Made by a program: the position numbers and the translations under genes. Shown here piece after piece: positions 16,730 to 47,185 of a DNA stretch of 64,000 bases. The stretch is from a virus. The stretch lies in IMG/VR virus record IMGVR_UViG_3300033049_000020, positions 64,001 to 128,000 of that record; one strand, 5' to 3'. Numbering within the stretch: position 1 is the first letter of the stretch; each line of letters starts with the position of its first letter. The notes below the pieces were generated by a model. It did not search any database and was not told where the DNA came from. It worked only from the letters and a program-made list of their open reading frames with translations.

Positions 16730-16755
16730 ATGTCCAGTTCTTTGAAATAAAATAT

Positions 16756-16841
16756 GTGTAGGTGCCTGAGTGGTCGAAAGGTGCGGTCTGCAAAACCGTA
16801 AGGAGAAATCCTCATCGTCAGTTCGAATCTGACCCTACACT
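16756..16841 (+). tRNA. tRNA-Cys(GCA), long variable arm
   Basis: GTGTAGG/CCTACAC, loop CTGCAAA. Confidence 0.85.
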
Positions 16842-16847
16842 CTAAAT

Positions 16848-25586: not shown

Positions 25587-26923
25587 GATGGACTTAGAAA
25601 AACAATGGAACGACTTACGTAACGATGGTAAATTATTATCATATATTGAGGATAAGTTTGACCACTATAAAGAACTTGGCTATCAAGTAAGTGCCTTCAT
25701 AAGCTCTTCTTATATTAGTATTGGAGATGAGAGTATCACAGGCAACAAATCCATGTACCACGAATTAAAGAGTATTCATGATATGGATGCGTACTTAAAA
25801 GATAAAGAGGAAAGTCAACCATGAACAAACTACACGCAAGAAAAATAAGTGAAACCATACCTGATGTTGCAATATTCAACATGCTGGAACGTGCTAAGAC
25901 TGAGGTAAAGGATTGGTCGGTTCCATGTAAGGTGAATGGTCAGATAAGTAGGGGACATTTCTGGAACATGTTCGCATGTCAACTTAAAGCTCCAGATTTT
26001 GAAATCGTGAGTAGTATGGTTAAGTATAGTCTTATATATGAGTTCGGTGACCTACTTCCAAAGGAGTACCAACCACCCAAAAAGAAAAAAGGTAAGGAGT
26101 TACCATTAAACTATATTCATTCAGAACCAAAATTTAACTAATGGAAACAGATGGAGATTACGATACTGGATGGGATGAATCAGAAGATACTGAACTAGAA
26201 GCATGGGATGTAGAAACGGATTCTGAAGACCCAGAATTTGAAACTGGTAAGGAACCAAATAAGGATATTGATTATTTATACATTCTTGGTGAGGCTTGGC
26301 CAGTATATCCGCAAGGTATCACCACTATTTTCGAAGATAAATATGAAAGACCTCATATTGTATCTAGAGAGCAATTTGATGCTATTCACACCAAATACTC
26401 TTGTATAGATATTGATGATGAGGTAACGGCTATCGATATAGTCAAAATTGGAAACACATCTTACGAATTTACCATTAAAGAACTTAATATCAGATGTCGC
26501 TCTAACTATCCTTGGGCATTCTTTGAGAACACTCCAGAGAATAGACCGAAAATCAATGAGTACTATAGACAGAAAAAGAATAGAGAAGAGTTGGCTGAAA
26601 TAGTTGAAGTATTAAGAAACGATATTGCACAACTATGAACGAAGAAGTTACCCACTTCAATTATTGTATAGCTAGACCATGGAAAAATAATCCAAATAGT
26701 CTATCCGCATACGCTTTAGGTACTCAATTATTTTATGGTACTATGGAGGAGGCTGAAGACACAAGAGCGAATATAAGTAAACGAGCTGGAAAAGAATATG
26801 AAATCTATAAGCTTGATAATCAACCACTTATGAGAAAACCTTAAAATATTTTACAAAAGACTTGTATTATCCAAATACTTTTCGTATCTTTGTACTATAT
26901 TTAATAGAAAGACATAAACAGTT

Positions 26924-27068: not shown

Positions 27069-27185
27069 ATGCCTTAAAATTAAAATATGCGACCTAAGCT
27101 AACTTGGTAGAAGCACTGGCTTGAAACCCTTCTTTCTAATAGAAGTAAAACAATTAGAGTGAGTTCTTTGACATCTTGGTTAAAT

Positions 27186-27259
27186 GGGGTAGTGGTAGAG
27201 TTGGTCAATTGCGTTCGGTTGAAGCCCGAAAGATGTAGGTTCGATTCCTACCTGCCTCA
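27186..27259 (+). tRNA. tRNA-Phe(GAA)
   Basis: GGGGTAG/CTGCCTC, loop TTGAAGC. Confidence 0.8.
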
Positions 27260-27323: not shown

Positions 27324-27740
27324 ATGGAAAAGAAAATTTGTACACGATGTGAAGATAGTAAAGAGTTAGACGACTTCAGTTGGAAGAGTAAAGTAAAAGG
27401 GACTAAACAGTCTAAGTGTAAAGTATGTATGCGTGAGTTGGATAAGATAAAATACGCTAATGATACTGAAAGGAGAAGAAGAATAAGGGAAACCGCAAAA
27501 CTGGCTTATATTAGGAATCGTGATTTTGTGCGGAGAGTAAAAAGGTTGGGTAGCTGCTCTGAATGTGTAGAAGATAGGTGGTATTGTTTAGACTTCCATC
27601 ATTGTGGAGATAAAGAGTTTGAACTTAGTGATATGGTACATTCTGGGTATTCCATTATTAAGATTAAAAAGGAAATTAGAAAATGTAAGCTTCTATGTGC
27701 TAATTGTCATAGAGAAGAACATTACCAGAATGGTTATTGA
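27324..27740 (+). mobile_element. HNH homing endonuclease
   Basis: CSEC..LDFHH...KC.LLCANCHREEH. Confidence 0.85.
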
Positions 27741-27849: not shown

Positions 27850-28013
27850 CAGCTAATATTTTAGCCAGAAATAGCTAAAATAGAGGTAAATAGTTAATAT
27901 ATTAGCTATTGTTCTTTGACATCTTGGTTAAATGGTGCTGTATGCAAGCGGTTCAACGCAGCAATTTGACATTTTCTAAATGTTTAGTATATTTATATTA
28001 AAATAGATATATT

Positions 28014-28640
28014 ATGGTAAGAAAATGGAGAGAAAAGGAAATTGAGTTTTTAAAGCTTAATTATGGTGCTAATGGTTGTAAATACGTTTGTGAAAAATTA
28101 AATAGAGGTAGAGGTAGTGTACAGAAAAAGGCTAAAGTCTTCAACCTGAAAGTAGATAGGAAAAAAATTTATTATTCAGTGGAAGTTGTTAGTAGAATAG
28201 TCAGTGAAAGTATGTCGATGAAGGATGTGGTGTTGGCATTAGGTAAAAGTGTTAGTGGTAAACAATATAAGGTAATAAAAAAGTTTATAGATGATAATAG
28301 TATTGACGATACACATTTTAATCCTTACCACTTAAATAAAACTAATTTAAAAATTGGTAGAGTCACATATCCAATTGACCATTGGCTTAAGAACGGTTCT
28401 AATATTAGTAGTTCTAACTTAAAGGTTAAACTATATAAAGAAGGTCTGAAGAAGAGGGATTGCGAAATGTGTGGGCAAGGTGAAGAATGGTTAGGTAAAA
28501 AAATGAGTTTAATACTTGACCATATTAATGGGGTGAATGATGATAATAGGTTGGATAACTTAAGGATTGTTTGCCCTAATTGTAACGCTACCTTGGAAAC
28601 CCATTGTAGAGGTAGTAAGGGATTAAAACAACGTGCGTAA
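28014..28640 (+). mobile_element. HNH homing endonuclease
   Basis: CEMCG..LDHING..DNRLDNLRIVCPNC. Confidence 0.9.
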
Positions 28641-28714
28641 TGCAATTGGGTGCGCAACTGGGCTTTCACCCCAGCTACATTGTTAGAGAGTGGGTTCGAT
28701 TCCCACACGCATGA
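28632..28714 (+). tRNA. tRNA-Glu(TTC), long variable arm
   Basis: CGTGCGT/ACGCATG, loop CTTTCAC; overlaps HNH stop. Confidence 0.75.
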
Positions 28715-28908
28715 CTATACAACCTTGTGTCTATATGACTTCGAGGGTTCGAATCCCTTCGGCACTACATTATTGGTGTTCCAAATTGACCTAAAATTGA
28801 GTGTTTTGGAACACCAATAACCAGCCAAAACTACCTGTTTTAGGGTACATTTGGCTGGTTATAGAACGCGGAATGTACTTAAATGTGGTAGATTCCGAGA
28901 AATATCAC

Positions 28909-28981
28909 CGCCCGTTGGTCTATCGGTTAGGACGTCTGGTTTTCAACCAGAAGGTGATGGGTTCAATTCCCATACGGGTGA
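28909..28981 (+). tRNA. tRNA-Glu(TTC)
   Basis: CGCCCGT/ACGGGTG, loop TTTTCAA. Confidence 0.9.
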
Positions 28982-29011
28982 CCTTGACAATCTGGAAAGA
29001 CAGATAATTAT

Positions 29012-29088
29012 GGGGGATGGGACTGCTTTGGAGTGGTCACCTCACTTGCAATGAGGAAATCAGATGGGTTCGAATCCCATATCCTCCA
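29012..29088 (+). tRNA. tRNA-Ala(TGC)
   Basis: G3:U70 pair, loop CTTGCAA. Confidence 0.85.
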
Positions 29089-29153: not shown

Positions 29154-29933
29154 ATGGCTAAGTGTAAGAATATTGAGTGTAAAAATAATACAGAAGGTAA
29201 ACGAGTTTATTGTTCGTTACAGTGTAGGAACTATTATGTTAACAAATATATTAGGGACTACAATAAAAATAGCAAGGGGCTTGCCAAAGACGCTAAGAAA
29301 GTTTATGAGGACAACCCTAAATATTGCTTAAACCCTAATTGCGGAGAGAAGATAACATATAAGAAAAGAAGGAACCAATATTGTAATAGCTCATGTCAGG
29401 CGTCTGTTACGGGTGTAGGTAGAATTGTTAGCGAAAGTACTAGGGAAAAGCATAGATTAAGTAGGTTAAAACAAATTGGTGATTACAAAAAGGTTGATTG
29501 TAAATGGTGTGGTTCAGAACTATTAGTTATGAATAGAAGACTATATTGTGATTCAGAATGTAGAAGAAAATATAATCGTAAGAATATGGATGAGTTCTTA
29601 ATCTACAAAGCTGACACAAAATTCGGTTTTAATTTGGGTGATTATCCTAAAGAATTTAATTTTGGGCTGATAGAGGAACACGGTTGGTACTCACCAACCA
29701 ATTCAAGAAAGCCTAATATTGGTGGTATAAGTAGAGACCACATGTTATCAGTTAGAGAAGGGTTTAATAGTGGGATAGACCCAAAATTATTGAGTCATCC
29801 AGCCAATTGTAAATTGATGATTCATGGTGATAATATTAGTAAGAATAAGAAATCTAGTATAACAGAAGAAGAATTAAAGGAAAGGATTAAAGAATGGAAT
29901 AAGAAATATGGGGCTATGGTGACAACTGGCTAA
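29154..29933 (+). mobile_element. Zn-finger/HNH-like homing endonuclease
   Basis: Multiple CxxC/YCS..C; SRDHMLS..HPANC..NISK; ends inside tRNA-Ala. Confidence 0.65.
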
Positions 29934-29983
29934 CACGTTGCTTTTGCAAGGCAGAGATGGGGTATCGTACACCCCTAGCTCCA
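29910..29983 (+). tRNA. tRNA-Ala(TGC), atypical T loop
   Basis: GGGGCTA/TAGCTCC, loop TTTGCAA. Confidence 0.75.
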
Positions 29984-30369: not shown

Positions 30370-30398
30370 CCTTTGACAATCTGGAAAGACAGATAAAT

Positions 30399-30481
30399 GG
30401 ATATGGCGCATAACGGCTGGTGTACCTGACTGTCACTCAGGTGTGTGTAACACGTAGTGGGTTCGACTCCCATCATATCTG
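30399..30481 (+). tRNA. tRNA-Asp(GTC), long variable arm
   Basis: GGATATG/CATATCT-G, loop CTGTCAC. Confidence 0.8.
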
Positions 30482-30517
30482 CCCTTGACTTTTTGGTACT
30501 TAGCCATATTTATATGT

Positions 30518-31159
30518 ATGAGGAAACCAAAAACGATACATTACCTTTACAAGACTACTTGTAAAGTAACAAATAGGTACTATGTAGGGATGCATAGTAC
30601 CAACGACTTAGAAGACGGTTATATGGGTTCTGGAAGAAGGTTACGAGCCTCAATCAGGAAACATGGTGAAGATAACCATACCAAAGAGATATTGGAGTTC
30701 TTTGATGATAGAGGACGACTGATAGAAGCAGAGAAGGAATCTATTACCTTAGACATGATTGATGATAAGGATTGTATGAATCTGATGGGAGGTGGAACAG
30801 GTGGTTTCATCAGCGAAGACCAACAGAGGCATCGTTCAACGATTGCAGTGGAGAAGAGAGAAAAGAAGAGAGAGGACGACCCAGAGTGGGATAAAGAGTA
30901 TAGACAAGCTCAATCCCTATCATTGATGAAGCAATATGAGAGTGGTAAGCGAGTATCCAAGCTCCCAAACTGGGAAGGTAGGAAACATTCAGAAATTACT
31001 AAAGAGAAGATGAGGGAGACTAAGAAGGGACAAGGCTCTGGCGAAACTAACTCTCAATACGGTACTTGTTGGATAACCAAAGATGGTTCCAACAAGAAGA
31101 TTAAGAAACAACTTCTTGATTCATTCCTTACTGAAGGATGGGTTAAAGGTAGAAAATAA
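30518..31159 (+). mobile_element. GIY-YIG (Seg-like) homing endonuclease, paralog of 18569
   Basis: MRKPKTIHY.YKTTC..YYVGMHST..YMGSG. Confidence 0.9.
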
Positions 31160-46022: not shown

Positions 46023-46033
46023 CTTTTTAATCT

Positions 46034-46127
46034 CTAGTAATGTGCGAGTGGATTAAGCAACTGGCCTTGGAAACCAGTGAGGACTTCAAGAGGTTGTCTT
46101 CCGTAGGTTCGAATCCTACTTACTAGA
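46034..46127 (+). tRNA. tRNA-Pro(TGG), long variable arm
   Basis: CTAGTAA/TTACTAG, loop CTTGGAA. Confidence 0.75.
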
Positions 46128-46248
46128 AATGACTAAGTTAACTACTTCCACGTAGTAGTCATTGGAAACAGGTAATGCTGGCTAAAAGTTAACAAAAAAT
46201 TCTGGTCACTTTCTCTGACTTGAACATATTTATATAGAAATAGATATT

Positions 46249-46790: not shown

Positions 46791-46876
46791 TGAGCGATAT
46801 GCAAACTGGCAAGCAAACAGGTTTTGAACCTGTCGTGACGAAAGTCCAATTGTAGGTTCGAACCCTACTCGCTCAA
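46791..46876 (+). tRNA. tRNA-Gln(TTG), long variable arm
   Basis: TGAGCGA/TCGCTCA, loop TTTTGAA. Confidence 0.8.
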
Positions 46877-47185
46877 CCGTTTACTTTTCTGTACTTTTTA
46901 AGTACATTATACAATAACAAAAAATGATACTATGGAGAATATAGAGAAATTAATAACTGAATATGAAACCAAATATGAAGAAGGTTTCACCGATGATGAA
47001 ATCAAAAACATATTAGAGAATTATCCCAACATTAACATGGATAAGTTTAATGGTGCAATGATGGGAAATACGTGTGCAATGAGAGATGGGTTACTAGTAA
47101 TGTATCCTTGTGATGTAAGAGCAGCATTGTATTGTGGAATGGAGAATCGAGATTTAAATATACAGGAATGGGATTAAACGTATAT

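Follow-up and report, generated by a model that had tools for sequence, protein, structure and literature searches.

SegB of phages T4 and T6 is a free-standing GIY-YIG homing endonuclease encoded in a tRNA gene cluster; it cuts within tRNA genes, a T-loop motif being part of its recognition, and it spreads itself together with the neighbouring tRNA genes (PMC2330249; PMC13096335). SegB homologues are widely associated with tRNA genes, and SegB causes microhomology-driven rearrangements of tRNA-plus-nuclease units (PMC2330249; PMC13096335). The locus analysed here, a broken tRNA-Glu gene that we call X, likewise has a free-standing nuclease gene within a phage tRNA array. The nuclease is of the HNH and not of the GIY-YIG type, and, whereas SegB lies between intact tRNA genes, here tRNA halves flank a block that consists of a nuclease gene and a tRNA gene. 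SegB cleavage has been demonstrated, while cleavage by the HNH protein (HNH2 below) is a prediction.

In fungal mitochondria, mobile endonuclease ORFs bring with them a foreign version of the C-terminal end of the gene that they invade; the cases include atp6 in Allomyces and atp6, atp9, cox2, and nad3 in Glomus, the native end being left downstream as an unused remnant (PMC3630166). As in these fungal genes, a nuclease ORF appears to have entered a needed gene at X, bringing a divergent substitute and leaving a native remnant, and in both the native remnant is nearer to its relatives (71% identity for X) than to the incoming copy (58% for X). The fungal mobile ORFs are found in protein genes of organelles and encode LAGLIDADG or GIY-YIG enzymes, whereas a tRNA gene, an HNH nuclease, and a phage are concerned here. 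Only the 3' part is replaced in the fungal genes, by in-frame fusion, whereas at X a whole tRNA would have been brought and both native ends remain. The fungal mitochondrial mobile ORF is the closest conceptual precedent for the X cassette; the presence of its architecture at X is a likeness of mechanism, not membership.

Homing nucleases survive in needed genes by means of self-splicing introns or inteins, or they sit between genes. Bacterial tRNA group I introns lie in the anticodon region, and those with homing endonucleases are found in the anticodon loops of cyanobacterial tRNA-Leu(UAA) and of tRNA-fMet. X resembles such genes in carrying a putative mobile element in the anticodon region; unlike them, it has no ribozyme, its exon sequence is incomplete, and rescue would come from a spare gene and not from splicing. 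Integrating elements (phage and island attachment sites) also have tRNA genes as their targets, and restore the gene with their own copy of the tRNA 3' end. The X cassette would similarly carry sequence that keeps a working tRNA available, but the integrating elements use an integrase and reconstitute the target gene, whose 3' segment they supply in identical form, while the cassette has a nuclease gene and a complete, different tRNA, and its target stays broken. Nucleases in phage tRNA arrays are already known. In a limited literature search, we found no description of a nuclease-split phage tRNA gene or of a nuclease-plus-whole-tRNA block nested in a tRNA gene.

The window, the whole stretch of 64,000 nucleotides that was analysed, represents bases 64001-128000 of a 152,464-bp virus record, with 36.5% G+C and 43 tRNA genes called by ARAGORN; positions below are those of the window. 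Nucleotide searches found no close relative among cultured phage records, and the protein-mode search of these records gave distant HNH relatives only, with identity of at most 53%. No relatives of the flanking protein (26141-26638) were found in the viral contigs. Four nuclease genes are present in the tRNA array between 27100 and 31800, namely HNH1 (27324-27740, phrog_2255), HNH2 (28014-28640, plus strand, phrog_10822), an HNH-like ORF (29154-29933), and a GIY-YIG gene (30485-31159). The 3' end of the HNH-like ORF is overlapped by a degenerate tRNA-Ala-like gene (29910-29983; Rfam 40.9 bits, odd T loop), which has no ARAGORN call; the tRNA-Ala at 29012-29088 was likewise missed by ARAGORN. 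Perfect T-arm motifs outside the ARAGORN-called tRNAs are many at genome positions 45099-64865, upstream of the window, and further ones occur at 728, 841, 19269, 19638, 33397, 47747, and 49316 of the window. These orphan T-arm motifs may be odd tRNAs missed by the finder, or more tRNA remnants.

The 5' fragment of X (27934-27964, plus strand) comprises an acceptor strand, a 3-bp D arm, G26, and anticodon-stem positions 27-29. The 3' fragment (28720-28767, plus strand) comprises C36-A37-A38, the 3' strand of the anticodon stem, a variable-arm hairpin, a T arm, an acceptor strand, and the discriminator A (28767). GGTGCTG (27934-27940) pairs at 7/7 positions with CGGCACT (28760-28766), with G.U at 1:72 and 6:67, and the 3' piece has CAACCTTG at 28720-28727, the hairpin GTC-TATAT-GAC at 28729-28739, and the perfect T arm GAGGG-TTCGAAT-CCCTT at 28743-28759. 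An earlier note, made from the letters of the window, had pointed to this acceptor pairing, distal hairpin, and T arm, and all of them are present as it placed them.

The two pieces were compared with 373 distinct tRNAs, taken from the same genome and from 98 loci encoding HNH2 relatives. Both had the same top match, the 85-nt long-arm tRNA-Glu(UUC) of the metagenome locus L021, and for both the long-arm tRNA-Glu of L022 was the close runner-up. In the alignment the 5' piece occupies columns 1-31 and the 3' piece columns 38-87, with no overlap and six columns empty. The six bases absent from X read GACTTT in L021 and represent tRNA positions 30-35, including U33-U35, so that the break in X falls between positions 29 and 36, inside the anticodon stem-loop. 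The identity of X is 71% with the L021 tRNA and 66% with the L022 one, whereas with the inner tRNA of the same genome it reaches only 58%. It has the wobbles G1.U72 and U6.G67 in common with the L021 tRNA-Glu, and relative to L021 the pairing at 2:71 and 50:64 is kept by two-strand (compensatory) changes. Our own family model gave a local match for the 3' piece at 28730-28759 (15.2 bits, E 0.0036) and only 6.5 bits for the 5' piece alone, with the alignment beginning exactly at 27934; no Rfam match was obtained for the 5' piece on its own. These comparisons show that one long-variable-arm tRNA-Glu gene has been split into 27934-27964 and 28720-28767. X has no anticodon, and it is assigned to Glu because of its similarity, the retained C36-A37-A38, and the gene order.

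Acceptor complementarity alone is weak evidence and is not convincing. In a crude test, which asked for 7/7 pairing and a D-arm-like motif within 3 kb, 18% of the shuffled acceptor strands succeeded, and the crude search returned a second chance 5' partner for the 3' piece at 28229. Both results would suit a reading in which the pieces are unrelated debris of different tRNA genes, with acceptors complementary by chance, and this phage is indeed rich in orphan T arms and degenerate tRNAs. The comparative data speak strongly against such debris, which we regard as highly improbable: the two pieces share their top match out of 373 and tile that tRNA without overlap, their wobble positions are identical to those of the L021 tRNA-Glu, compensatory changes at 2:71 and 50:64 preserve the pairing, and a 23-nt tRNA-start motif abuts the 5' piece. 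A stricter null, in which each candidate 5' position in the 152-kb genome was joined to the 3' piece and ARAGORN was asked for a tRNA, also disagrees with chance pairing. Position 27934 ranks ninth among 955 candidate positions, almost all of the better ones being inside real tRNA genes, and the non-tRNA positions that score as well amount to ~3 per 152 kb, that is, roughly 0.02 expected in the 830 nt upstream. The common origin of the halves was settled by the comparative evidence (same top match and tiling), not by complementarity alone. According to the earlier note the halves come from one Glu-like tRNA, a claim that their derivation from unrelated tRNAs would have overturned; instead, the two share their best match among the 373 tRNAs, the intact long-arm tRNA-Glu of L021, which they cover between them except for 6 nt.

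An intact long-arm tRNA-Glu is located just 5' of a canonical tRNA-Glu in L021, L025, and L115, where long-arm Glu followed by canonical Glu is a conserved order. X has the same order, at a distance of 141 nt from the canonical tRNA-Glu(UUC) that begins at 28909 (28909-28983, plus strand, 75 nt; ARAGORN, Rfam 62.1 bits). The spacer between the broken and the canonical tRNA-Glu (28768-28908) contains two strong inverted repeats, ATTATTGGTGTTCCAAA...TTTGGAACACCAATAA and CCAGCCAAA...TTTGGCTGG.

The 5' end of X is abutted by the 23-nt motif GTTCTTTGACATCTTGGTTAAAT (27911-27933, plus strand). A second exact copy (27163-27185) abuts the tRNA-Phe at 27186, the chance expectation being 0 matches. The motif core TTCTTTGAMAT was detected further at 16738, 40311, and 45838 of the window, and upstream of tRNAs in the related contigs L024, L026, and L027. 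The motif at 27911-27933 represents the native context of a tRNA start, and could act as a promoter or in processing. One copy of GTTCTTTGACATCTTGGTTAAAT sits inside the upstream nuclease cassette. The conserved order, together with the 23-nt tRNA-start motif, identifies X as the resident gene, still at its native location 5' of the canonical tRNA-Glu.

The halves of X are separated by an insert of ~755 bp (27965-28719), in which a leader is followed by the HNH gene and then by a tRNA. The leader forms the left end of the insert (27965-28013, plus strand) and has a promoter-like TTGACA-16-TATATT at 27966-27993, with 11/12 positions in agreement with the promoter consensus. The same layout, TT(G/C/T)ACA...TATA(A/T)T, precedes the homologous HNH genes in L020, L024, L025, and L026, which makes the leader part of the nuclease gene rather than of the tRNA. 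Past position 29 the sequence of X opens with TTTGACA, the -35-like box. For the left junction of the insert there is a margin of two or three bases, since CAA/TTT could be assigned to either side. ARAGORN offered the 5' piece as a tRNA-Val(GAC) with a TTGACAT anticodon loop, which was rejected, TTGACA being the -35-like box of the HNH leaders.

HNH2 (28014-28640) is intact and encodes 208 aa. It matches Pfam HNH (PF01844) with E 1.4e-5 and 25.6 bits against a cut-off of 21.4, over residues 150-193, and phrog_10822 with 3e-34; the catalytic and zinc-binding residues C150, C153, H170, N178, N182, C187, C190, and H197 are invariant in its six closest homologues. HNH2 stands alone as an ORF, with a start codon and a leader of its own, and is free-standing in the sense that neither an intron nor an intein carries it.

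The third part of the insert is the inner ('cargo') tRNA-Glu(UUC) (28632-28715, plus strand), 84 nt long, detected by ARAGORN and by Rfam (RF00005, 39.5 bits, above the cut-off of 29). It has a long variable arm and a 3-bp D stem with a 13:22 mismatch, and the HNH2 stop codon TAA (28638-28640) forms its positions 7-9. On the right, the insert ends with the inner tRNA followed by TATA (28716-28719, plus strand), junction bases with no counterpart in the alignment of the intact relatives. A common cloverleaf, its D stem 3 bp long, unites five members of the long-arm tRNA-Glu family, with compensatory changes in 16/20 pairs, and a sixth intact long-arm tRNA-Glu was found in L255. By its sequence, the inner tRNA is a complete, divergent member of X's own tRNA family. 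A donor-type copy of HNH2 with the inner tRNA was not found, and an exact-pattern scan of the viral contigs for the D arm of the inner tRNA gave no match. An HNH gene at 28014-28640 and a long-arm tRNA-Glu that overlaps its stop codon are what the earlier note had described between the halves, and this description is borne out.

The homologues of HNH2 number 2680, the closest two being 72% and 65% identical. Of 87 distinct homologue copies in viral and metagenome contigs, 83 are no more than 1 kb from a tRNA; in 16 the distance from the stop codon to a tRNA 5' end is between -20 and +10 nt. Genes of the HNH2 family were thus shown to be all but confined to the neighbourhood or the interior of tRNA genes. 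A tRNA-Glu is located 70-80 nt 5' of several of the closest relatives, and in L022 it is a long-arm one. The contig of P0002, the closest homologue (72%), was found neither in the viral contigs nor among the 80 metagenome loci listed. Several homologue ORFs end inside the downstream tRNA, at positions 7-10 (L022, L046, L072, and others), and the stop of such ORFs is often the tRNA's own U8-A9-G10, reading TAG; in these copies, too, the nuclease message would lose its stop codon when RNase P processes the tRNA.

A 43%-identical homologue was detected inside a class II tRNA-Leu(UAG) in L004 (2765-3516; IMGVR_UViG_3300023196_003249, a complete 360-kb phage genome). The insertion is exactly between tRNA-Leu positions 33/34, no base having been lost, and in silico removal of 662 nt gives a perfect 90-nt tRNA-Leu(UAG). 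The ARAGORN intron mode, which produced many false chimeras of neighbouring tRNAs, was employed for L004 alone. Taking X and L004 together, two members of the HNH2 family therefore interrupt tRNA genes in the anticodon region. The homologue ORF in L004 extends 24 nt into the 3' part of the tRNA-Leu, and an intact 77-nt tRNA-Leu(UAG) is present 8 nt upstream of the split one.

The site of the break, the anticodon region in which group I introns of bacterial tRNAs lie, and the homologous insert of L004, which interrupts a tRNA-Leu without base loss, would both fit an insert that is an intron or intervening sequence giving a working X, or halves that are joined in trans as in archaea. We consider these readings very unlikely. 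No group I/II intron match was found in the window at E up to 1 or in the L004 insert, and in the 20 closest loci all 119/119 matches at the gathering score are tRNA, with no intron. The non-coding parts of the insert are limited to the 49-nt leader and ~80 nt, the latter being a complete tRNA. U33-U35 and three more bases are absent from both halves; the joined halves therefore encode no anticodon and X is dead, and ARAGORN does not call X because these six bases are missing. A group I/II intron was rejected on both counts, the lack of a ribozyme match and the lack of the six bases including U33-U35 from the joined halves. A trans-joined split gene of the Nanoarchaeum type was rejected as well: the anticodon is absent, the flanks of the halves are the nuclease leader and a tRNA 3' end, and the halves have no complementary leader sequences. 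X is a broken, disabled gene, neither intron-containing nor a trans-joined split gene.

In comparative genomics for an empty site, which the earlier note had recommended, an intact X-type tRNA was found at the matching place of the array in L021, L025, and L115, which belong to distant phages with 66-71% tRNA identity; a near-identical genome with an uninterrupted X was not found, and exact-pattern scans of the viral contigs with each X half gave 0 matches. Two degenerate D-arm patterns returned mostly chance matches, the true long-arm tRNA-Glu genes among them being only those of L115 and L255.

Taken together, the arrangement suggests, with a probability of about 0.75, that the HNH gene, its leader, and the abutting long-arm tRNA-Glu are a block of homing origin lodged in the resident gene X. 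We infer, because of the geometry alone, that HNH2 and the tRNA moved as one unit in one step. In phages without HNH2, the enzyme would cut or nick intact tRNA-Glu genes of the X type close to the anticodon region, and the break would be repaired by copying the nuclease gene and the neighbouring tRNA from the donor. With a donor that has no flanking homology, repair would proceed via ends near the break and would leave a nested insert in place of a clean allele swap; the six-base loss in X would have arisen during that repair, and the broken X site would no longer be cuttable. The inner tRNA, with ~40% of its positions different, would escape cleavage and supply the long-arm tRNA-Glu function, and with this function supplied the phage would tolerate the insertion. 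An RNase P cut at 28631/28632 would strip the nuclease stop codon from the shared transcript, and this removal of the stop codon may hold nuclease expression low.

Other histories of the block can be proposed, in which HNH2 and the inner tRNA arrived separately, for example by a later insertion of HNH2 at the 5' end of a tRNA already in X, or in which the locus is the scar of nuclease-triggered tandem amplification and deletions, as in SegB and T6. For a separate arrival, the 16/87 family members within -20 to +10 nt of a tRNA 5' end are relevant: abutment of HNH genes on tRNA 5' ends is frequent, and therefore the adjacency can arise by HNH insertion alone. A lone tRNA gene, however, has no known route into another tRNA gene. 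Amplification has a precedent in SegB, which drives tandem repeats of a tRNA and a truncated nuclease gene via microhomology (PMC13096335), and the 23-nt exact repeat at 27163/27911 shows that recombination or conversion has occurred locally and recently. With 58% identity, X and the inner tRNA are nevertheless not recent tandem copies, and amplification would take three events or more, where a single insertion takes one. We therefore hold these histories to be unlikely, and the single insertion of a nuclease-plus-tRNA block is preferred.

The earlier note had also regarded X as a case independent of the nuclease cassette upstream, with the opposite gene order. This holds on both points: HNH1 (phrog_2255) and HNH2 (phrog_10822) have no detectable similarity, and the order is tRNA-nuclease in the upstream case and nuclease-tRNA at X.

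Long-variable-arm versions of normally short-armed tRNAs (80-96 nt, with a class II-like 3-bp D stem) were observed in this genome and in L001-L098. Examples in the window are located at 16756-16842 (Cys), 30398-30484 (Asp), 46033-46128 (Pro), and 46791-46878 (Gln). They are often found beside a canonical tRNA with the same anticodon, and 9/22 adjacent same-anticodon pairs are of the long/short kind; L004 also carries a short tRNA-Leu. A limited literature search found no paper on long-armed phage tRNAs of normally short-armed types. The X case points to a conserved set of long-variable-arm versions of short-armed tRNAs in such phages.

At X the nuclease gene appears to offset the damage that it causes by supplying an entire replacement gene, a small expense when the gene is an 85-bp tRNA. 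Blocks of a nuclease and a spare tRNA could be a general third way for homing nucleases to persist, besides introns and inteins, in which the tRNA is broken and an uncuttable allele is installed; this is a tentative proposal, for which we would offer somewhat less than even odds. If it is general, it would imply a constant turnover of tRNA alleles in phage arrays, explaining many duplicate and degenerate tRNAs as well as the pseudo-tRNA debris in these arrays, and nuclease expression would be tied to the processing of the tRNA in which the stop codon lies. Such loci would also provide natural pairs of cut-sensitive and presumably cut-resistant tRNA genes, from which the nuclease recognition site would be readable, and the proposed process would offer a route by which large phages rapidly gain, lose, and duplicate tRNA genes.
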